From a virus (lineage: Duplodnaviria > Heunggongvirae > Uroviricota > Caudoviricetes): a stretch of DNA of 23,278 nucleotides. Position numbers and translations under genes: made by a program. The notes under the pieces are model-generated. The model was not told the origin of the DNA. It did no database searches and was given only the letters and a program-made list of their open reading frames with translations. The stretch lies in IMG/VR virus record IMGVR_UViG_2718218100_000005. The stretch is one strand, 5' to 3'. This document shows positions 1,862-17,003 of the stretch, piece by piece. Numbering within the stretch: the stretch's first letter is position 1; each line of letters begins with the position of its first letter.

Positions 1862-1945
1862 TTAACGGTTCACATCCCGAAAATCTGCGCTTCTGGCTGA
1901 AAGCCTGTCCGGTGGTCCTTCGTGAGCGATTTCATCAACAATGTA
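1862..1945 (-). pseudogene. continuation of the gpD-like gene on the other side of IS30, ending after 27 codons
   Basis: After removing IS30 plus one copy of the AG duplication the gpD frame continues in phase as YIVDEIAHEGPPDRLSARSADFRDVNR-stop; gpD-like similarity stops near 1862, implying a deletion of the remaining approx 300 codons. Confidence 0.5.
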
Positions 1946-2005
1946 AGTGTAGATTCAATTGGTCAACGCAACAGTTATGTGAAAACATGGGGTTGCGGAG
2001 GTTTG

Positions 2006-3018
2006 GAACTATGGAAGAACGGAACAGGCTTCAGTGAAATAGCGAATATCCTGGGTTCAAAACCCGGAACGATCTTCACTATGTTAAGGGATACTGGCGG
2101 CATAAAACCCCATGAGCGTAAGCGGGCTGTAGCTCACCTGACACTGTCTGAGCGCGAGGAGATACGAGCTGGTTTGTCAGCCAAAATGAGCATTCGTGCG
2201 ATAGCTACTGCGCTGAATCGCAGTCCTTCGACGATCTCACGTGAAGTTCAGCGTAATCGGGGCAGACGCTATTACAAAGCTGTTGATGCTAATAACCGAG
2301 CCAACAGAATGGCGAAAAGGCCAAAACCGTGCTTACTGGATCAAAATTTACCATTGCGAAAGCTTGTTCTGGAAAAGCTGGAGATGAAATGGTCTCCAGA
2401 GCAAATATCAGGATGGTTAAGGCGAACAAAACCACGTCAAAAAACGCTGCGAATATCACCTGAGACAATTTATAAAACGCTGTACTTTCGTAGCCGTGAA
2501 GCGCTACACCACCTGAATATACAGCATCTGCGACGGTCGCATAGCCTTCGCCATGGCAGGCGTCATACCCGCAAAGGCGAAAGAGGTACGATTAACATAG
2601 TGAACGGAACACCAATTCACGAACGTTCCCGAAATATCGATAACAGACGCTCTCTAGGGCATTGGGAGGGCGATTTAGTCTCAGGTACAAAAAACTCTCA
2701 TATAGCCACACTTGTAGACCGAAAATCACGTTATACGATCATCCTCAGACTCAGGGGCAAAGATTCTGTCTCAGTAAATCAGGCTCTTACCGACAAATTC
2801 CTGAGTTTACCGTCAGAACTCAGAAAATCACTGACATGGGACAGAGGAATGGAACTGGCCAGACATCTAGAATTTACTGTCAGCACCGGCGTTAAAGTTT
2901 ACTTCTGCGATCCTCAGAGTCCTTGGCAGCGGGGAACAAATGAGAACACAAATGGGCTAATTCGGCAGTACTTTCCTAAAAAGACATGTCTTGCCCAATA
3001 TACTCAACATGAACTAGA
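2006..3018 (+). pseudogene. IS30 transposase (InsI-like), 5' and 3' disrupted
   Basis: ORF 1922..3058 matches IS30 transposase from ELWKNGTGFSEIANILGS... to ...AQYTQHEL; N-terminus upstream of ELWK is read-through of the terminal repeat (no native start), 3' end runs into the IS629 terminus at 3019. Confidence 0.85.
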
Positions 3019-3060
3019 TGAACCGCCCCGGGTTTCCTGGAGAGTGTTTTATCTGTGAAC

Positions 3061-3951
3061 TCAGGCTGCCAGATCATCGTTTCCGATGGAAGCATAATAA
3101 GCTTTTTCTGCTTCTGCCGGAGGAGTATGGCCCAGCCTTCCCAGCAATCGTCGATTGTTATACCAGTCCACCCACGTTAGTGTGGCCAGTTCCACTTCTG
3201 CACGGTTTTTCCAGCTCTTACGGTGTATTACCTCCGCTTTGTAAAGACCATTGATGCTCTCAGCCATCGCGTTGTCATACGAGTCGCCTGTACTCCCTGT
3301 TGATGCCAGTAATCCGGCTTCTTTTAGTCGCTCCGTATAGGCCAGTGACACATACTGAGAGCCTTTATCGCTGTGATGGATGGTGCCAGACGGACGACGG
3401 GCCCACAACGCCTGCTCCAGCGCATCCAGCACGAATGTCGTTTCCATAGACGATGAGACCCGCCACCCCACGATGTATCCGGCAAACACATCAATGATAA
3501 ACGCCACATAGACGAAGCCCTGCCATGTGCTGACGTAAGTAAAATCAGCCACCCACAGCTGGTCAGGTCGTTCTGCCACGAACTGACGGTTTACGCGGTC
3601 GCCTGCGGCAACGGCTTTCCGGCTGATGGTCGTACGGACCTTTTTACCCCGGAGAACACCGGCAAGTCCCATAACCGCCATGAGACGTGCCACTGTACAT
3701 CTGGCCACCCTGATTCCTTCCCGTAACAACTGACGCCAGACTTTACGCACACCGTACACCTGATGATTTTCATCGTATACGCGCTGTATCTCTCTCTTCA
3801 GCCAGTCGTCGTGCTGCGCACGGGCACTGCGTTTATCCGGATGATGTCGCTGTTGCTGACAATGGTAATACGTTGACGGGGCAATATGCAGTTCGCTGCA
3901 TACCGGTCCGACCCCGTACTGCTCACGCAGCTTATCCAGCAGTGGCATCAT
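3061..3951 (-). CDS. IS3-family transposase OrfB (DDE integrase-like catalytic domain)
   Basis: 296-aa ORF overlapping orfA by ATGA; contains DDE-type motifs ([30 protein letters not shown]); probably expressed as OrfAB fusion by frameshift. Confidence 0.85.
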
Positions 3952-4274
3952 TTTTTCCAGAGGCGGTCGAACTCCGCCTTCGCAAAATAAGCGGAAGCCT
4001 GGCGAAGGATATCGTTACTGCGGCGCAGTTCACGATTTTCACGTTCCAGCTCTTTCAGACGCTGACGTTCAGCGCTGGTGAGCCCACCATCACCGCCCCC
4101 GGTATCCCGCTCATGCTGGCGAACCCAGACACGCAGAGTCTCCGGCGTACAGCCAATCTTTGGGGCAATGGAACAAATTGCCGCCCACTGTGAGTCATAT
4201 TCATCCTGACTTTCCAGAACCATACGAATCGCCCGCTGACGGACTTCGGGGGAAAAACGAGTATTTTTAGTCAT
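3948..4274 (-). CDS. IS3-family transposase OrfA (HTH)
   Basis: 108-aa [54 protein letters not shown]...; leucine-zipper-like C-terminus; typical IS629 OrfA. Confidence 0.85.
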
Positions 4275-4329
4275 CCTGTTTACCTCTTTCTCAGGGAGTT
4301 TAGTCTCCAGGATTTCCGGGGCGGTTCAA

Positions 4330-6976: not shown

Positions 6977-7140
6977 TCACGGTTGTGTGCTTTGAGCACA
7001 TAGAAGACTTTGTGGCAGATATTGCCGTTATTTTTAACTGGTCGCCCGCCGAAATCTTCATGATGACGCCCGGCGAAGTGGTTAGCTGGCGTGAGCGGGC
7101 GGCACTTCGCAGCGGGAATGCAGACAATGAAGACTCTTGA
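6928..7140 (+). CDS. E' extension (-1 frame) of the tail chaperone
   Basis: 71 codons open in the -1 frame (ERCGLWREERTGDGSLITVV...RERAALRSGNADNEDS) reachable only by frameshifting at 6922-6928. Confidence 0.65.
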   Translation, partial: ERCGLWREERTGDGSLITVVCFEHIEDFVADIAVIFNWSPAEIFMMTPGEVVSWRERAALRSGNADNEDS

Positions 7141-9930
7141 TATCCGGGTCGCTTTCAGCGCCGTTGACAGGCTGACCCGACCTGCCGAAAACGCACGCCG
7201 CCTGATGGGGCAGTTTGGTGACTCCATCCAGCGAACGCAGGGGGCGATCAAAAATCTCGAGCGTCAGGCGCGATCATTTGAGCGCGCCCGCGACGCTGTC
7301 AGTAAAGCGGATGCTGGCATCGTGAAAGCACGACGCCAGCTTAACGCCCTTAATCAGTTACAACGCACGGGTACAGTGCTCAGCGAAAAACAACAAAAGC
7401 TGATGCAGCAGTTAAGCACCCGGCTTGAACGCCTGAATGAATCGCGCACACGGGAAATTCAGAAAATGAGGGAACTTGGCGGAGAGCTGAAACGCCACGG
7501 CATTTCCCTGACAGGCAGCGATAACACCATTCAGCAGGCCATCAGACGCACCGAACAATACAACAACCAGCTTGAACGCGAACGGCAGGCGCTTGCGCGT
7601 GTAACGCAGGCGCGTGAGCGGTATTCGCACGCGCAGGAAACCGCGGGAAAACTGAAAACAGGTGGTGCGCTGGCAATTGGTGCGGCAGCGGCGGGCGGCT
7701 ATGCTGCCGGGCGTTTTTTGCAGCCTGCGATCGGGTTCGGCAAAGAGATGTCCCGCGTTCAGGCACTGACGCGAATCGACAAAAACAGCCCGCAGTTTAA
7801 GGCGCTGCGTGAGCAGGCGTTAAAACTTGCTGAAACACAGTTTACTGCGAGTGATGCCGCCAGTGGGCAGAGCTTTCTGGCAATGGCTGGTTTTACTCCG
7901 CAGGCCATTCAGGCCGCATTGCCCGGTGTTCTTAATATGGCGCTGGCAGGTGGCGTCGAACTCGGCGAGACGGCTGATATAGGCTCCAATATCCTCACAC
8001 AGTTCAACCTGACAGCCGATCAAATGGACCGGGTGGGCGATACGCTGACAGCAGCATTTACCCGGACCAATACTGATTTACGCGCGCTGGGCGAAACCAT
8101 GAAGTATACCGGTCCGGTTGCCGCAAAACTTGGTATCAGTCTTGAAGAAGCGGCGGCCATGGCCGGGATGCTTGCCAATAATGGTCTTCGCGGAAGCGAT
8201 GCTGGCACGGCCATGCGCGCAAGTCTGTCCCGCCTTGCATCACCGCCAAAAGCTGCGGCTGATGCACTGAAAGAGCTGGGGGTGTCAGTTGCTGACGCCA
8301 GAGGCAAAATGCGCCCGATGGAGGATGTGCTGCTTGATCTCTATAAGGCGACACAAAAATACGGACAGGTGGACCAGGTCTCCTTCTTCAAGGACATCGC
8401 CGGAGAAGAGGCGTTCGTTGGTTTGCAGACGCTTGTTGCGGCGGCTGGTTCAGGAGAGCTGCAAAAACTGACCAGAGAATTGCAGGGGGCAAGGGGAGAG
8501 GCCGATCGCGTCGCAAAAGTAATGGCTGATAATCTTGATGGGGACCTGAAAAATCTCGACAGCGCATGGGAAGGTCTTCGTATTCGCATCAGTGATCTGG
8601 TTGACGGTCCGCTGCGTTCTGTCACGCAGTGGCTCACGCGGGGGCTTGAAAAAATCACCTCGCTGGCGCAGGCCCATCCGGTACTGACGCGCCAGCTACT
8701 GATAGCAGGCGGTGCGTTGCTGGCAATGACTGCAACGATTGGCTCGTTGTCGCTGGTTATTGGGGTGCTTTACGGGAAGCTGGCCACCCTGCGTCTTGGT
8801 TTTGACATTCTTACCCGGTCAATGAATGTCGTCAGGGTGTTACCTGCGCTATGGGGAATGGTGACGGGTTCCGTTTCTTTACTGGGAGGCGTTATCGGGG
8901 CGTTGTTCAGTCCGGTTGGTCTTATCGTGGCTGCGCTTGCCGGAGCTGCCGTTCTTATCTGGAAATACTGGGATCCTATCAGGGCTTTCTTTGCCGGGGT
9001 GTTCAGCGGGATTATGGAAAGGCTGACCCCGTTGCGCGACACCTTTGAACGGTTTGGCCCTGTTTTTGACGTAATCGGAAGCGGTTCAGCCAGGTGTTTA
9101 ACTGGTTTAAATCGCTGCTGTCACCGATGGAGTCCAGCAAGGAAACGCTGGATAAATGTACCAGTGCTGGCGAGGTATTCGGTAACGTTCTTGGTGGTGC
9201 GTTACAGCTTGTTCTGACGCCTGCAAAAATGTTGCTGGATACGCTGGCGTGGATACTTGAAAAACTCGGTGTGCTTCCGGATGAAGCGGAAAGGGCGCGC
9301 AAGAAAATCGAAGACGCACAACGTGCGGCCATTCTTCAGGACAAGGTTGCTCTGTTTCAGGGAGACATTGCGAAAATCAATCCGCCGAAGTCTGCGGGAA
9401 ATAGCAATGGCACCGGAGATGATAAACCCAAAGACAACAAACCTCTCACAGACAGCAATACCGGCACGCTACGCAGACTCAGCAAAATTGCTGATAACAC
9501 AGGTAAGCTGGTTGATGAGACAAAAAAACGCATTGGCCCCGGCGATATTGTCTTTAAGAACCTGCCCCGCGCACTTGCTGTTCGTGGGGAGTGGCAGGAG
9601 CGGAAGATTGCGCAGGTCAGTAAGCCTGCCCCCGCAATTAATATCACACCCGTGGTCCCGGCTCCGCTGCCTCCGGCGCTGGTCCCTGTTGTTGCGGCCA
9701 GCTCCCGCCCGGTGGTGGAGGCCATACGATCGCCAGTGGCATCAGTTCCTGCAACTTCCCGTAACCGGGAGCCTGTTGCCTCCGGATTTGGCGGTGAAAT
9801 TCATGTTCATCTGCATAACGTTGTTACGCAGAATCCCCGCGAACTGGCGAAACTGGTCGGCGAAATGGTCAGGGCAGAAATGGAACGGCGCGCCCGTGCC
9901 AGGCGTGGCAGTTTTTACGATAAAGATTGA
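7127..9930 (+). pseudogene. tail tape measure protein (P2 gpT-like) with a reading-frame break near 9068-9095
   Basis: Long coiled-coil N-terminal region, Gly/Ala-rich hydrophobic central segments and a C-terminal region, all typical of tape measure proteins; ORF 7091..9217 and ORF 9094..9930 are in different frames and together span one gene-sized unit (length not a multiple of 3). Confidence 0.75.
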
Positions 9931-10536: not shown

Positions 10537-10587
10537 CTCTTAACCTTATAACATGTGTGGTCTGAAATAATAATTAAGGAGATTATC

Positions 10588-11160
10588 GTGCTATCTTACT
10601 TAATGGCAATTCACTTTGTTTTATTTGGAAACTCTACTAATTTAAAAAACTTCTGGAAACATGAAGTAATTCGGCGGAAACGTATGGATATCTGGAGGCT
10701 TTTAAGAGAGAAAAAGCAGCGTAACCGGAATTTCCTTTTCTGGTGGCGGTTGGCTAACGAAATGTATATTAATGGTAATAAATTACATAAGAAAGCAGCC
10801 AAAAAGTTAAACAGTAAAATAATTAACAAGTTTGGTTGTGAAATAGGATTGGGCGCAAATATTGGAAAAGGGTTGACAATTCCCCATCATGCTGGAATTG
10901 TTGTTCATTTTGCTGTTGATGCGGGTGAAAATCTGGTATTACGACAGAATACTACCATTGGACAGATAGATGGTGATATGCCTAGTTCAAGAGTAAAAAT
11001 TGGTAGTAACGTTGATATCGGAGCTAATTGTTGCATCATTGGATTATCACGTAAAATTGGGGATAATGTAAAAATAGGTGCAATGTCTTTTATAAATAAA
11101 GATATACCATCAAACTGCACATATATAACTAAAAAGAGTGGTGTTGTATTGTATAAATAG
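10588..11160 (+). CDS. hexapeptide-repeat (left-handed beta-helix) acyl/acetyltransferase, serine O-acetyltransferase-like
   Basis: GTG start 7 nt after SD AAGGAGA; tandem hexapeptide repeats (IGLGAN, IGKGLT, IGSNVD, IGANCC, IGLSRK, IGDNVK) and an HHAGIVV...G motif as in CysE/LacA-type transferases; markedly AT-rich versus flanking tail genes. Confidence 0.8.
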   Translation: MLSYLMAIHFVLFGNSTNLKNFWKHEVIRRKRMDIWRLLREKKQRNRNFLFWWRLANEMYINGNKLHKKAAKKLNSKIINKFGCEIGLGANIGKGLTIPHHAGIVVHFAVDAGENLVLRQNTTIGQIDGDMPSSRVKIGSNVDIGANCCIIGLSRKIGDNVKIGAMSFINKDIPSNCTYITKKSGVVLYK

Positions 11161-11206: not shown

Positions 11207-11736
11207 TTGTGGGGCGACTGGCCACTCAACATCCGCTGCTACTGTTGTATCAACACGATTCAACAATACCCGATATGTCTTCCATGCAGCCAGTAACGAT
11301 GCCTCTTCCTCCGTCGCAATATCCAAATCTACGGCATCCTGAAGTGGCGCAATATGCTCACTGGCTACCTGCATCAGGCTGTTTTTTGTTTCTTCTGCCT
11401 CCCGTACCCGAAACAGTTTTTCTGCTTCTGCATCTTTCGCCCAGGATGTGCCGTTCCACTTCTGACACTCTCCATCCGGCGACAACCAGGTAACATTTTC
11501 CGGTAACGGACCGAGTTCAGAAATAAATAACGCGTCGCCGGAAGCCACGTCATAAACCGTTTTACCCCGATGATCTTCAACGAGATGCCACGATGCCTCA
11601 TTACTGTTGAAAACAGCCACGAAGCCAGCCGGAATATCTGGCGGTGCAATATCGGTACTGTTTGCTGGCAGACCTGTATGAGGCGGAATGTATGCGTCAC
11701 CTTCACCAATAAATTCATTAGTTCCGGCCAGCAGAT
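11204..11736 (-). pseudogene. tail fibre assembly protein (P2 gpG/Tfa family), 5' end removed by IS629 copy 2
   Basis: Minus-strand frame reads ...[62 protein letters not shown]...[35 protein letters not shown], with the C-terminal motif characteristic of Tfa; open frame runs without start codon up to the IS terminus at 11737. Confidence 0.8.
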
Positions 11737-11790
11737 TGAACCGCCCCGGGAATCCTGGAGACTAAACTCCCTGAGAAAGAGGTAAACAGG

Positions 11791-12117
11791 ATGACTAAAA
11801 ATACACGTTTTTCCCCCGAGGTCCGTCAACGGGCAGTCCGTATGGTTCTGGAAAGTCAGGGCGAATATGACTCACAATGGGCGGCAATTTGTTCCATTGC
11901 CCCAAAGATTGGCTGTACACCAGAGACTCTGCGTGTGTGGGTTCGTCAGCATGAGCGGGATACCGGGGGCGGTGATGGTGGACTCACCACCGCTGAACGT
12001 CAGCGTCTGAAAGAGCTGGAACGTGAAAATCGTGAACTGCGCCGCAGTAACGATATCCTTCGCCAGGCTTCCGCTTATTTTGCGAAGGCGGAGTTCGACC
12101 GCCTCTGGAAAAAATGA
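11791..12117 (+). CDS. IS3-family transposase OrfA
   Basis: 108-aa ORF nearly identical to copy 1 OrfA (differs at a few residues, e.g. AVRMV/QGEYD/LTTAE). Confidence 0.85.
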
Positions 12118-12796
12118 TGCCACTGCTGGATAAGCTGCGTGAGCAGTACGGGGTCGGACCGGTATGCAGCGAACTGCATATTGCCCCGTCAACGTATTAC
12201 CATTGTCAGCAACAGCGACATCATCCGGATAAACGCAGTGCCCGTGCGCAGCACGACGACTGGCTGAAGAGAGAGATACAGCGCGTATACGATGAAAATC
12301 ATCAGGTGTACGGTGTGCGTAAAGTCTGGCGTCAGTTGTTACGGGAAGGAATCAGGGTGGCCAGATGTACAGTGGCACGTCTCATGGCGGTTATGGGACT
12401 TGCCGGTGTTCTCCGGGGTAAAAAGGTCCGTACGACCATCAGCCGGAAAGCCGTTGCCGCAGGCGACCGCGTAAACCGTCAGTTCGTGGCAGAACGACCT
12501 GACCAGCTGTGGGTGGCTGATTTTACTTACGTCAGCACATGGCAGGGCTTCGTCTATGTGGCGTTTATCATTGATGTGTTTGCCGGATACATCGTGGGGT
12601 GGCGGGTCTCATCGTCTATGGAAACGACATTCGTGCTGGATGCACTGGAGCAGGCGTTGTGGGCCCGTCGGCCGTCCGGCACAGTCCATCACAGTGATAA
12701 AGGTTCTCAGTATGTATCACTGGCCTATACGGAGCGACTAAAAGAAGCAAAACTGCTGGCATCAACAGGGAGTACAGGTGACTCGTATGACAATGT
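12114..12796 (+). pseudogene. IS3-family transposase OrfB, 3'-truncated
   Basis: Matches copy 1 OrfB up to ...[11 protein letters not shown] then ends in unrelated sequence (ORF 12114..12806, 230 aa versus 296 aa). Confidence 0.8.
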
Positions 12797-12825
12797 ATTT
12801 TATTAGTTCACATACAATTATCAGA

Positions 12826-13140
12826 TTATTCTGGGAATAAGGTCTGAATATTCTTTTTTATTTTATAAAAATTGCATTCAACTCCGCTAGGCTGATTAGC
12901 CTGGTATGTTTCCTTGATGCTAACGGTATTGAAGGGGAGGTTGTCCTCTGGCCATTCGGCCATCCAGTAGGCAAATGCTGGGTTGCGCTTTATGAGTGCT
13001 AGCCCAGCCAGAAAGGCCGCGCGTTGCGCGCGGCTGCGTTCGGAGGCTGGCAGGCTATCGAGGTAATTGCACGCCTCCTGTTCACTCTTGACGGCGGCGG
13101 GCTTCAGATAGAAACTTATCCGTCTGGTTGGTGTCGTCAT
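12826..13140 (-). CDS. ParR/StbB-like ribbon-helix-helix partition adaptor (possibly C-terminally shortened)
   Basis: 104-aa ORF 4 nt downstream of the parM-like gene; ISFYLKPA...LDSLPASERSRAQRAAFLAGLALI resembles plasmid R1 ParR N-terminal DNA-binding region; 3' end lies in AT-rich DNA next to the IS truncation point. Confidence 0.6.
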   Translation of the reverse strand: MTTPTRRISFYLKPAAVKSEQEACNYLDSLPASERSRAQRAAFLAGLALIKRNPAFAYWMAEWPEDNLPFNTVSIKETYQANQPSGVECNFYKIKKNIQTLFPE

Positions 13141-13144
13141 TGGT

Positions 13145-14104
13145 TTACTCCTTGTTCATTGCGTACAACCCATTAACCAGAGCAAACTGTGGCACCCCGT
13201 CCGCGATGAAAGTCGCATTAACTCCGCAGGCTTCGCGGATAGCGGTTGCCACAATCTCCGCCCCGCCACCGACAACCATCACCCGCCCGTAACCCGAAAA
13301 AACCGCCAGCGCGCGGATCACGCGTTGTTTCAGTGTTTCTTCCTTTTCACGAATAACCGCCATCAGGCTGGCGTAATGCGCGTCATTGTGGATGTGCTGG
13401 CGCAGCCAGGCTTCATCATGGCGATGTTCGATAATGGTATTGGCGATGTGGTGACTGGTGCGCATACCGTTAGTGGCCATCACCGACAGTACGGCATCGG
13501 CCATCAGAGAAACGCCTACGTGTGGATCGCAAAACACCTGGCTGATACCTGCCAGTTGCCCCTGAACCTTTGCCACATCCAGCGTGGTTCCGCCCAAATC
13601 CACAATCAGCAGGGATTCAAACGGACTCATGTCAGCCAGTGCCTTAAAGCCAGCAGGAATGGATTCAGGCATAACCCGTACGTTACGGATAGTGAATGCT
13701 TCGCCGTTCTGGTACTCCACCGGGCGCATGACGTTCGCTTTTTTGCGGTTGATGTTGGCCATGTCCGGCTGTGCGTTTGTATCGAAATACTCGCTCAGTG
13801 GCAGGGTGACAACCACATCCACTTCCTGTGGTGTGATGCCTGATTTGACCAGCGCGTGATGAATGGCAATTACATTCACATCGCTGTACTGGTATTGCGT
13901 GTCGGTCGTCTGGACAAAGCGATCGCTGACCGGATCAAAACCATAGCGCACGCCATCAAGCATGTAGTTCGCGGGCTGCGTGCCACCGAATGGCGCAGAC
14001 CATTCCGACTTGAAGCTGTTCGGGCTGATGGCGTTGCGGCGTTCGCCGTTCTCAGTCCATGCCAGCTTGATGTTGGTGGAGCCGTCGTCGATACAAATTT
14101 TCAT
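13145..14104 (-). CDS. ParM/StbA-like actin-type segregation ATPase
   Basis: 319-aa ORF starting MKICIDDGSTNIKLAW; co-linear similarity to plasmid R1 ParM (ISPNSFK, YSDVNV, HHAL, VMPESIPAG, DLGGTTLD, GVSL, FSGY, GGGAE, LVNG motifs). Confidence 0.8.
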   Translation of the reverse strand: MKICIDDGSTNIKLAWTENGERRNAISPNSFKSEWSAPFGGTQPANYMLDGVRYGFDPVSDRFVQTTDTQYQYSDVNVIAIHHALVKSGITPQEVDVVVTLPLSEYFDTNAQPDMANINRKKANVMRPVEYQNGEAFTIRNVRVMPESIPAGFKALADMSPFESLLIVDLGGTTLDVAKVQGQLAGISQVFCDPHVGVSLMADAVLSVMATNGMRTSHHIANTIIEHRHDEAWLRQHIHNDAHYASLMAVIREKEETLKQRVIRALAVFSGYGRVMVVGGGAEIVATAIREACGVNATFIADGVPQFALVNGLYAMNKE

Positions 14105-14180
14105 GTCGCTTTTCCTTATGTTGATTAATTAATCGGTTACAGGATTTTTAAATCCCGCTTTTGCCTGTTTTGTGCGCGCT

Positions 14181-17003
14181 TCATATATCGCGGCGCGTTT
14201 TTTGCTCATTTACGGGATTTGTGAGTCCCGTTTCTGTCTGTTTTTTGTTTCCACTGGTCAGGCCACCCCGCAGCAGGTCTGCTTTGCGGCTGGCGCGTTC
14301 AGTGGTTTCACTGATTCTCTGTGCGTGCTCTGCGTCGCGGATGGCGCGCAGCATGTCAGAAAGCACGGTAACGGGTGTTTTCATGGTGTTCTGGTCCTGC
14401 TGAAGTGTGGATGCCAGGCGTGCGGCGGCTTCAGGGTCTGATGCCCCCAGCTGTGCCAGATAGCTGGCGACCGGGTTATGGCGGATCTCCGTGCTGCTTA
14501 CGCCATGATTACGGCTCAGGCGCTGCCAGAGCTGCGTGATTCGGCTGTCCGGGCGGGTATCCGGTTTGCGTACAATTTCAAATCCCTGCGGTGCAATGAT
14601 GCTGCCGTCAACGTACAGACTGCCGCCCCGTAACAGGTGCTGCATCTGTTGTTCACCGATATGCAGGCCGAGAGATTCAGCAGACTCCCGCCATTCTTTA
14701 GCGAGTAATTCGTGGTTATCAGGCAAAGGCCGCTGCTGTTTGCGGCTCTGTGTCCAGCTCTGCATTTCATCACTGCTGTTTTTTGCCTGTTTGTCACGAA
14801 GCGAACGCATCAGCGCCCGGCGTTCGTGCCGTTTCAGTGAGCGCATCCATTCGTTCACGTCAACGCCGTCAGGAAGCTGCGGCCACGGTGCTGGCCGTTC
14901 TTCCGGCTGTTCTGTCCCGTTGTTGTCCGTTTCCTGTACACGGGGACAGTTATTGCCACGAGTCCAAGGGGCGGCAGGGCCGCCCTGAAGGTCAAAACCA
15001 TTTTCGCGGGCGCTGTCTTCTACTCCCGGTTTACGTCTTACCAGCTTCCAGTTATCCGGGTGCGTGCACACACGGGAGGATTCCCCGATGAGTGGTGACC
15101 AGATCCCGTAAATCTGTACGCTCTGTTCGCCGTAATCGTTCAGCTCATCTGCGAGGTCGTAGGCGGTGCGAATCAGGTAGTCCTTGCGTGGAACAAGTAC
15201 GCCTCCCTGTTTCTCAATGTAGGTGGTAAAACATCCGGCATCAGCGGCAGCAAGAACCGCATCCATTGCGTCATCCTTCAGCCGTTGCGGGCCTTCCGGG
15301 TTGCGTGCCATCTGGCTGGCAAGGCGACGCAGTTCACGCCACACCTGACGGGAGGGGATGCCAAAGAACTGGAACTGGCGGACCCGGTGAAGGCGCGCCC
15401 AGCCAATGGCGCGTTCCACGCTCTCGGTCATTGATTTTCCGGTTTCGTGGTCAACGCGTGGTTTGCCTGTTTTCGGGTCGATGCCATCCACGGCGCGGCT
15501 GTCCAGGTTTTTTCCGATGTAGGTGGCGATGTAGCTGGTTGGCGTGCCTTTTGAGCCGTCGACATACTCCGCCTTAAAGCGCGGAGTAATATCATCGCCC
15601 AGCTCGTGACGATCTTCCTGAATGGCAATATCGCGGGTGTGGGACACAATGGTGTCGATTTCTTCCGGATGAGCAAAGACCATCATATGCCAGTGCACGG
15701 TGCCGTCATGGTGAGGCTCCACCGTGCGGATGCCATACCAGCGCAGGCCGTCGCGGTTCAGTTTCTTGCGGACCGCCGCAAAAAACGTGTTAACCAGGTA
15801 ATCGCTGGAGTCGCGCATGGTGGCCCCGTTCCATTTGGGATTCGGATGACCGTTCTCTGTTGTAGCGTGGTATTTTGACGGGCAGGTGACAGTCAGAAAC
15901 ACCGCTTTGTCGCCACGGGCTTCGGCCAGAAGTTCCAGCCCCTTCATGGTGGCCATCATTTCTGCCTTACGGTGAACCGGGTTACTTACTCCCGCGTAAT
16001 ACACTGTCTCGAGATCAATCGTGAACCCGTCTTCGTTTTCCAGCATGAAACTTTTCAGGAAATCGCGTGTTTTCTCGCGCTGTGCGCGAAACTCGCTTAA
16101 CGCGTCCTGGCTCAGATAGGGCGATGTTTTTCTGGAAACCAGACAGGCGGCGCGGAGTTGTTCTTCTCTCCACTCGCAACGTAACAGCCACAGTTTGCGT
16201 TTCCACCATTCCGCACAGGTCAGGCGAAGGATTGCGCCCGGCAGCAGCTCCGTGTCCGGTTCGTTCCTCCGGTCTTTGTCTGTTGTCAGTGCGTCATAAT
16301 GTGGAGGCATGGCGTGCAGGTGTAACGCCATGCGGGCCAGCATCTGATACGCCTTCAGCGTTACATCCATGGTCAGTTCGCCATCGGTCGCGCCAAAGCC
16401 ATCGCAGAGTTTTTCGAAGGTGCTGCTGAACATCGCCGCCGTCATGGTGGCCAGCGTCTGTATCTGGTGTTTGTTGAGCTGCGGCAGGTAAAGCAAATCG
16501 TCCAGGCGTTCGCGTCCGGCAAGGGAGCGATAACCCTGTGTCAGCCAGCGGTGATCGGTGCGCTCCAGACGTTCGAATATTTTGCGCAGGTTTCCGCGCG
16601 CGTAGCGTTCAGCCTGCCAGCTCTTTTTGCCTTTCTGACGATCGGCTTCCTGTTTTTTGCGCAGGAAGGAGAGGTGGCGAATAAGCGGATCGCGCAGATA
16701 GGACGGCAGCAGGCGCAGCGAGGCCATGGCTTCATCCACCGCACCGCGTGCCTGTTTTCTGGCGTCTCCTGCCAGTGTGATGGTTTTGTCCTGTTTTTCC
16801 TGTGCGTCCAGGCTTTTATTAATCAGGTTGCCCAGCGGCGTTGCGGAGAACGCCGCATCAGCCATTTCCTGGCGGCGCTCGTTCTCTACCCGGTAGGCAT
16901 CCAGCCAGGAGGAAAGCGCGGATTCAGGAGCGGGGATCCCCGTTCCTTCACGCCCCACTGCGTGGCGCGGTTGTTGCCAGTCCCTGATGTACTCTGCCGT
17001 CAT
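14181..17003 (-). CDS. rolling-circle replication initiator endonuclease (P2 gpA family)
   Basis: 940-aa ORF with HUH-type motif (GTVHWHMMVF) and tyrosine motif (TSYIATYIGKN) typical of P2/186 gene A proteins. Confidence 0.85.
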   Translation of the reverse strand: MTAEYIRDWQQPRHAVGREGTGIPAPESALSSWLDAYRVENERRQEMADAAFSATPLGNLINKSLDAQEKQDKTITLAGDARKQARGAVDEAMASLRLLPSYLRDPLIRHLSFLRKKQEADRQKGKKSWQAERYARGNLRKIFERLERTDHRWLTQGYRSLAGRERLDDLLYLPQLNKHQIQTLATMTAAMFSSTFEKLCDGFGATDGELTMDVTLKAYQMLARMALHLHAMPPHYDALTTDKDRRNEPDTELLPGAILRLTCAEWWKRKLWLLRCEWREEQLRAACLVSRKTSPYLSQDALSEFRAQREKTRDFLKSFMLENEDGFTIDLETVYYAGVSNPVHRKAEMMATMKGLELLAEARGDKAVFLTVTCPSKYHATTENGHPNPKWNGATMRDSSDYLVNTFFAAVRKKLNRDGLRWYGIRTVEPHHDGTVHWHMMVFAHPEEIDTIVSHTRDIAIQEDRHELGDDITPRFKAEYVDGSKGTPTSYIATYIGKNLDSRAVDGIDPKTGKPRVDHETGKSMTESVERAIGWARLHRVRQFQFFGIPSRQVWRELRRLASQMARNPEGPQRLKDDAMDAVLAAADAGCFTTYIEKQGGVLVPRKDYLIRTAYDLADELNDYGEQSVQIYGIWSPLIGESSRVCTHPDNWKLVRRKPGVEDSARENGFDLQGGPAAPWTRGNNCPRVQETDNNGTEQPEERPAPWPQLPDGVDVNEWMRSLKRHERRALMRSLRDKQAKNSSDEMQSWTQSRKQQRPLPDNHELLAKEWRESAESLGLHIGEQQMQHLLRGGSLYVDGSIIAPQGFEIVRKPDTRPDSRITQLWQRLSRNHGVSSTEIRHNPVASYLAQLGASDPEAAARLASTLQQDQNTMKTPVTVLSDMLRAIRDAEHAQRISETTERASRKADLLRGGLTSGNKKQTETGLTNPVNEQKTRRDI

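Follow-up and report, generated by a model that had tools for sequence, protein, structure and literature searches.

A predicted R1-family ParM/ParR cassette, intact and typical of its lineage, downstream of gene A in a P88-like prophage of Escherichia coli

The closest described relatives of the locus reported here, the parM and parR genes that follow the replication gene A in a prophage of Escherichia coli, are the parMRC (stbAB) loci of plasmids R1 and R100. The R1 locus is carried by a low-copy plasmid, with parM preceding parR, and its centromere parC, situated upstream of parM, consists of ten 11-bp iterons with an embedded promoter. In R1 ParR, the region ETKKNAMKLIN is the ParM-binding peptide. 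Two further systems belong to integrated elements. In the SXT/R391 integrative and conjugative elements (ICEs), the srpMRC locus keeps ICE R391 stable while it is excised and replicated by its relaxase (Carraro et al. 2015, PMC4489591). In Corynebacterium glutamicum, AlpAC tethers the circular DNA of prophage CGP3 to actin-like filaments and is needed for its efficient replication (Donovan et al. 2015, PMC4446434). We compared with these systems a parM/parR pair found in a stretch of 23,278 nucleotides from a virus of the class Caudoviricetes (IMG/VR record IMGVR_UViG_2718218100_000005; the whole stretch is called here the window). The pair is an ordinary, already annotated and uncharacterised R1-family cassette that is typical of its phage lineage. 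The main outcome of the analysis is therefore a correction: a preliminary description, made from the letters of the window without database searches, had suspected a damaged oddity, and the pair is intact and lineage-typical. The genes are arranged on the minus strand as follows:

14181-17003, minus strand: gene A, 940 aa, with a PF05840 match at residues 179-503 (E 2e-131).
14105-14180, minus strand: gap of 76 bp separating gene A from parM; a good Shine-Dalgarno sequence (AAGGA) precedes the parM ATG by 8 nt.
13145-14104, minus strand: parM, encoding an actin-like segregation ATPase of 319 aa (PF06406 and PF21523).
12826-13140, minus strand: parR, separated from parM by 4 nt and encoding an adaptor of 104 aa (PF10784) with a DNA-binding N-terminal domain, a variable linker and a conserved tail.

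The parM-then-parR order is that of R1, and the separation of 76 bp between gene A and parM given in the preliminary description is exact. Profile searches placed the 319-aa protein in the StbA/ParM family and not in another actin-fold family: it matched StbA_N (PF06406) with an E value of 2e-82 and the ParM C-terminal domain (PF21523) with an E value of 4e-69, while a weak match to ALP_N (E 1e-5) fell below the cut-off. The match to the R1 ParM structures 1MWK/4A62 extended over residues 2-316 (E 7e-93). The protein is 47% identical, over its full length, to the R1-type ParM of an IncF plasmid, and all nucleotide-binding motifs (DDGSTNIK, MPESIPAG, DLGGTTLD and GGGAE) are conserved in the alignment with the solved R1 ParM. 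Pfam profiles and R1 alignments thus agree with the initial identification of an R1/StbA-type ParM followed by a ParR/StbB-type adaptor downstream of gene A.

In order to follow the variation of the pair, we assembled a set of 84 loci drawn from phage records, IMG/VR contigs and genome contigs. ParM was 319 aa long at all of them, and the ParM of the window was identical to copies found at other loci. The ratio of nonsynonymous to synonymous differences per site (pN/pS) was 0.064 for parM, with a pS of 0.074 (Nei-Gojobori counts). One residue of the window protein is uncommon: residue 287 (13246-13244) is Thr in the window and at one other locus (L006) only, and Pro at the other 82 of the 84. 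In the R1-type ParM, Asp stands at the corresponding position, and the site thus seems tolerant of change.

The ParR of the window matched Plasmid_stab_B (PF10784), the Pfam family of R1 ParR, over positions 1-70 of 72 (E 8e-29), and it weakly matched the N-terminal domain of pB171 ParR (2JD3, E 0.012). The preliminary description had held that ParR is short and may lack the ParM-interacting tail. ParR is indeed shorter than the R1-type protein (104 versus 116 aa), but about 18 internal residues account for the difference and the tail is kept. Its C-terminus, FYKIKKNIQTLFPE, aligns with the R1-type end ETKKNAMKLIN, the tail motif KKNIxxLF facing KKNAMKLI, so that both proteins share a KKN-x3-L[IF] tail. 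Comparison with intact homologous phages gave the same answer. The ParR of the intact phage vB_EcoM-569R5 has the same 104 aa (99% identity), and of 40 ParR protein variants at the 84 loci, 39 are 102-104 aa long, the remaining one being a truncation of 79 aa. Two stretches are invariant across the 39 diverse alleles, RRISFYLKP at the N-terminus and N-I-x-x-x-F-P in the tail, and residues 64-93 are hypervariable. The pN/pS values follow the same division, with 0.12-0.15 for codons 1-62, 0.5-0.7 for the linker and 0.05-0.20 for the tail. Constraint on the DNA-binding domain and on the tail, with a linker free to vary, is the pattern expected of a working adaptor. As judged from these alignments, ParR is full length and its predicted ParM-interacting tail is conserved.

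The parR gene also marks a boundary between phage groups. DNA homology between them breaks inside parR at about codon 18, near position 13086, and parR of the window is matched in full only by 569R5-type records. ParR alleles are mosaic: the core types SLPASERSRAQR and SLTPEARKSGQR are combined with varied linkers and tails, and the variant P0056 is a chimera. Both observations indicate that the boundary of the variable cargo falls within parR. In P88-like phages, this cargo starts either past the end of parR or within the gene, around codon 18.

The product of gene A (gpA) links the pair to a single phage lineage. It is 98% identical to gpA of phages P88, P884B11 and 569R5, and sequence comparison thereby identifies it as a P88-type rolling-circle replication endonuclease. 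Searching 50,697 phage records by tblastn, we found proteins aligning over the full 940 aa, with 86-98% identity, in 14 records only; P88-type gpA denotes here these proteins (at least 86% identity over the full 940 aa). The gpA proteins of other Peduoviridae were at most 43% identical and aligned just to residues 9-796, leaving the following region without counterpart:

14181-14612, minus strand: C-terminal extension of gpA, about 144 aa (codons ~797-940), unaligned by the gpA of other Peduoviridae.

ParM and ParR were present in exactly the 14 phage records with a P88-type gpA; the 368 records with another gpA lacked the pair. By these alignments, the extension of about 144 aa belongs to the parMR-bearing clade alone. 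It has no Pfam match. A plasmid origin of the extension was considered and rejected, since its matches in plasmids amounted to just six records, all with a P88-type ParM and at least one of them a whole phage. The nearest phage relatives of the window are P88, P884B11, phiSM and vB_EcoM-569R5 (Peduoviridae, genus Xuanwuvirus), with 96-98.6% DNA identity over parM and the 3' end of gene A. The prophage of the window shares with P88-like phages an integrase, the P88-type gpA, P2-type tail genes and the synteny of the early region, and the DNA identity across parR, parM and gene A is 98%. The only other phage record with an R1-type ParM was D6, whose StbA-type ParM is 48% identical to the one described here. 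As D6 is a P1-like phage-plasmid whose prophage would replicate in plasmid form, it can be expected to have a partition system. Unlike D6, P88-like phages encode an integrase and sit integrated.

The same ParM was found in 242 IMG/VR contigs, of which 80 were kept (98-100% identical), and a search of genome contigs gave three loci with 97-99% identity. One of these matches (L087, 97% identity) lies on a 226-kb contig, NZ_JBQPOM010000071.1, labelled as Vagococcus sp. WN89Y, a Gram-positive genus; this is probably enterobacterial contamination or a mislabelled assembly. Among 5426 complete E. coli genomes, 1303 (24%) carry the segment made of parM and its upstream region. In plasmid records, the six mentioned above carry a ParM 95-100% identical to that of the phages together with the P88-type gpA. 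Every other plasmid ParM is at most 53% identical to the phage protein, so that the phage ParMs form a clade apart from those of plasmids, and plasmid ParR proteins reach at most about 41% identity, over the N-terminal domain only. The preliminary description had seen in the pair a relic of a plasmid-like lifestyle or captured variable cargo. The co-occurrence with one gpA type in 14 of 14 records and the low pN/pS of parM speak against this view; in sequence terms, parMR is a fixed and selectively maintained core module of the P88-like (Xuanwuvirus) lineage.

We next considered how the pair may be expressed. No sigma-70 consensus promoter was found on the gene strand in 14105-14260 (at least 9 of 12 positions), in a consensus scan that a weak promoter could escape, and a scan for gene-strand terminators between gene A and parM found none. 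The autoregulated promoter within parC that characterises the R1 family was thus not seen in the sigma-70 consensus scan. With neither promoter nor terminator detected between A and parM, read-through is the simplest reading, and parMR is probably co-transcribed with gene A by read-through of the early operon. Reading the plus strand by eye, we noted at 14176-14200 a GC-rich inverted repeat (CGCGC ... GCGCG) that covers the gene A stop codon, with T6 after it. It has the look of a terminator that would stop transcripts running from parM into gene A, and was left unflagged by the terminator scan, probably because of an overlong loop.

In R1, the centromere lies upstream of parM. The preliminary description found no iteron array typical of parC to be evident, a statement that holds for an R1-style tandem array. 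Tandem Repeats Finder returned no array in 12500-14700, and the DNA upstream of parM shows no resemblance to the A/C-rich 11-bp iterons of R1-type parM. The statement does not hold for repeats of another kind, as a two-copy direct repeat of 38 nt with palindromes was found directly upstream of parM:

14210-14247: repeat copy A (distal), in the last codons of gene A; palindrome (box A) at 14212-14231, ACGGGAC-N6-ATCCCGT.
14137-14174: repeat copy B (proximal), in the gap between gene A and parM; palindrome (box B) at 14139-14158, with the variant GCGGGAT-N6-ATCCTGT on the gene strand.

This is the strongest repeat of the locus, and the longest or one of the two longest direct-repeat families in the window. 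The two copies are 79% identical, start 73 bp apart and straddle the stop codon of gene A; in 569R5 and P88 the repeat is 42 nt long and ranks first or second among direct repeats. Each 38-nt copy holds a 20-bp palindrome with the consensus ACGGGAT-N6-ATCCCGT across relatives, box B being in most of them the perfect palindrome ACGGGATTTCAGAATCCCGT. At the 84 loci, the arms of the palindrome are conserved and the 6-nt spacers are variable. The window contains exactly two matches to the palindrome at up to two mismatches, as compared with 0.12 in shuffles, and in a complete 34.5-kb P88-like genome the palindrome occurs at just these two places. The K/N/Q/T-rich end of gpA is encoded by this A-rich repeat region, meaning that the replication gene overlaps the putative centromere. 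Two other properties of the region upstream of parM were unremarkable: A-tract phasing at 10-11 bp, the signature of R1 parC, was not significant (the best period, 10.5 bp, was reached by about 7% of shuffles, as compared with 1.6% for the R1-type control), and the predicted RNA fold gave a z value of -1.8. Their position, uniqueness and pattern of conservation make the two palindromic repeats the best candidate for a compact parC, that is, a candidate minimal centromere. The arrangement differs from R1 parC, which has ten 11-bp iterons; the phage site has two repeats of 38 nt, each with a palindrome of 20 bp, and one of the repeats falls within gene A.

The candidate site can be compared in its layout to that of srpMRC, whose centromere is likewise compact, with a small number of direct and inverted repeats that precede the ATPase gene. 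The srpMRC locus is also a type II actin-type locus on an integrated element that excises and replicates via a rolling-circle initiator. SrpM and SrpR are distant from R1 ParMR, whereas the phage pair is a close R1 relative; the function of srpMRC is demonstrated, whereas the phage pair is known from sequence. AlpAC of CGP3, with its site alpS, has the circular DNA of the phage as its target and is an early-induced system. It can be likened to the present pair as a functional analogue only, as it involves a different actin-like family, a different gene order (alpAC) and a Gram-positive host.

The prophage of the window is defective: it is without portal, terminase and head genes, and its tape-measure gene is frameshifted. 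We take it to correspond to the P2-like defective prophage Sp13 of O157 Sakai, and the pair thus survives in a defective O157-lineage prophage of the Sp13/CP-933T type. Sp13 excises spontaneously, circularises and replicates, its early genes being induced despite the absence of head and packaging genes (Asadulghani et al., PMC2669165). Its circles increase about 30-fold after mitomycin C treatment (PMC2669165). These data, together with the srpMRC and AlpAC analogues, favour a role on the circular phage genome; most likely, this role would be to move or retain the circular DNA as long as the early operon is active. With moderate confidence, we interpret the pair as an intact R1-family type II ParM/ParR cassette, a core module of Xuanwuvirus, that moves or retains extrachromosomal phage circles. 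As their genes come last in the early replication operon, ParM and ParR would be produced while the phage genome is derepressed and outside the chromosome. ParR dimers could then bind both palindrome-bearing repeats around the gene A stop codon, which would function as a compact parC-like site, and the C-terminal tails of ParR would capture the ends of ParM filaments. Polymerisation of ParM would in turn move or separate the circular phage genomes. The expected benefit would be that an excised or non-integrated circle replicating by the rolling-circle mode is inherited or well positioned instead of being lost.

A stronger form of this interpretation seems to us possible and rather doubtful. 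It supposes a facultative plasmid-like carrier state, in which an R1-type actin spindle and the two-palindrome centromere would segregate phage circles and would help excision-proficient defective prophages such as Sp13 of O157 to persist. One record hints that a circular P88-like form can be abundant. NZ_CP148288.1 (L089), from a cat E. coli isolate, is a complete P88-like genome deposited as a circular non-mobilizable 'plasmid' of 34,461 bp. It is closed at attP and has all structural genes besides the integrase, the early region and parMR. Over 4.1 kb, between its portal gene and gene A, it matches at 100% identity an integrated prophage of strain Z1323HEC0067 from the same study. The record may represent either a genuine episome or an excised form that was assembled.

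Several observations weigh against the proposed function on extrachromosomal circles. Of the 1443 copies in the complete E. coli genomes, 1441 are chromosomal and 2 are on plasmids, so that a stable plasmid state is at best rare; carriage by a low-copy extrachromosomal replicon, a trait of the R1 family, is not what we found. The prophage of the window cannot make virions, and the role of the module in a viable phage may not apply to it. A literature search found no experiment or paper on the function of P88-type parMR; the phiSM protein is listed as a putative fitness factor in one paper. The model of the ParR monomer obtained with AlphaFold2 has low confidence (predicted local distance difference test score, pLDDT, of 55), and the ribbon-helix-helix type of its N-terminal DNA-binding domain is a prediction. 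Other observations concern the candidate centromere. It offers two sites, as compared with about ten iterons in R1, and box B of the window has two mismatches to the consensus. About 10 of the 84 loci have one box, as a result of a 73-bp deletion between the repeats. On the plus strand, a T-rich run follows each palindrome, which makes it resemble an intrinsic terminator. ParR N-termini are invariant in all homologues found, which leaves no variation in ParR to compare with that of the palindrome: the search for homologues returned Escherichia-group proteins only, and the seemingly distant matches were frameshifted copies. The type of box does not follow the ParR core type. The 73-bp deletion, seen at L029 and about ten other IMG/VR loci, shifts the stop codon of gene A to a TAA in the former intergenic region.

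The palindromes may thus have another function, either as plus-strand terminators shielding gene A or as hairpins or sites for gpA or another regulator, the ParR site being elsewhere or simpler. Box A was flagged as terminator-like on the plus strand by the terminator scan, in line with the T-rich runs, and conserved arms with variable loops would suit an RNA or DNA hairpin equally well. The loci with a single box point in the same direction, and the P2 origin of replication lies inside gene A. We nevertheless hold this explanation for possible at best. The repeats lie directly upstream of parM, as do R1 parC, srpC and alpS with respect to their operons, and they form a site that is unique in the genome and located within the gpA extension of the parMR-bearing clade. 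It would be unusual for terminators to stand 1.3 kb inside a convergent operon. A 20-mer taken for the P2 origin nick site has no match in the window at up to three mismatches, although an ori-related function of the repeats may still apply.

It could also be that the pair acts during lytic growth, in the manner of AlpAC, by positioning or spreading replicating circles for replication or packaging with no part in segregation at cell division. The module directly follows gpA at the end of the early operon, its own promoter was not detected, and CGP3 AlpAC provides a precedent. P2-family phages package monomeric circles. That nearly all copies are integrated argues, in addition, that plasmid-type maintenance is not the normal state. 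We consider such a purely lytic role unlikely, as R1-family ParM pushes sister replicons apart bipolarly, which fits partition, and as the module is kept intact in an O157 defective prophage that makes no virions of its own.

The third alternative is a decaying relic or passive cargo, whose partition activity, at least in this defective prophage, no longer works and whose centromere is absent, degenerate or lost with the IS629 event. This event left the following features next to parR:

12794-12825, minus strand: phage DNA past the parR stop, 32 bp, the same as in vB_EcoM-569R5 up to the junction and divergent beyond.
11736-12793, plus strand: truncated IS629-type copy of the IS3 family, with orfA intact, orfB cut at about residue 226 and the right end missing.

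Homology to IS629 stops at 12793 and phage homology starts at 12794. The preliminary description had stated that the 3' end of parR abuts the point where IS629 is truncated. The insertion sequence is truncated as it said, about 250 bp of the right end being gone by comparison with the full copy at 4329-3272, but 32 bp of phage DNA intervene between the junction and the parR stop codon (12826-12828). The two IS629-type copies (3020-4329 and 11736-12793) are in opposite orientation and 97.2% identical to each other, and the truncated one marks a deletion that took out the cargo, portal, terminase and head genes. An IS30-family transposase gene is present at 1922-3058.

A decayed state would agree with the heavy rearrangement of this prophage, which has lost its head and packaging genes and all DNA beyond 32 bp downstream of parR, with the two off-consensus positions of box B and with the lack of an R1-type iteron array. 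We find this improbable, however. Both open reading frames are intact, and the ParM sequence is shared without change by copies elsewhere. Constraint is seen on parM and on the DNA-binding domain and tail of ParR. The same variant of box B is found at loci outside the O157 lineage, intact phages carry downstream of parR no repeat array that could have been lost, and the arrangement is stable across 263 complete genomes. Finally, a competition device, in which phage ParR and ParM would disturb the parMRC of resident IncF-type plasmids or of other phages, is very improbable in spite of the frequent carriage by the hosts of IncF plasmids that have an R1-type parMR (with over 5000 matching plasmid records), given the distance of the phage ParM and ParR from their plasmid counterparts, an upstream DNA unlike R1 parC iterons and a literature that offers no support.

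The conserved cassette raises the question of what an integrating phage of the P2 family gains from a plasmid-type partition machinery that selection so strongly preserves. If active, it would be the phage counterpart of ICE srpMRC and CGP3 AlpAC in E. coli, the best-studied host, and in about a quarter of its complete genomes. It would also provide a compact two-site centromere for mechanistic work on ParR and ParM, and it might help to explain how Sp13, which excises and replicates yet yields no virions, persists stably in the O157:H7 lineage.

The window has 100% sequence identity with the chromosome of E. coli CEC96047, and its identity with many O157:H7 genomes is 99.5%. The prophage lies between a tRNA-Leu gene and yecA, and comprises the integrase, the early region, P2-type tail genes and several insertion sequences. 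Its tape-measure gene (7091-9930) is split into two overlapping open reading frames, 7091-9217 and 9094-9930; the RefSeq record that matches the window lists it as a frameshifted pseudogene. Upstream of the sheath gene, on the opposite strand, lies a fragment of gene D, indicating that the tail region has been rearranged. Between gene U and a reversed tail-fibre assembly gene, at 10555-11160, lies a low-GC (0.34) hexapeptide-repeat gene annotated as serine O-acetyltransferase, which looks like moron cargo.

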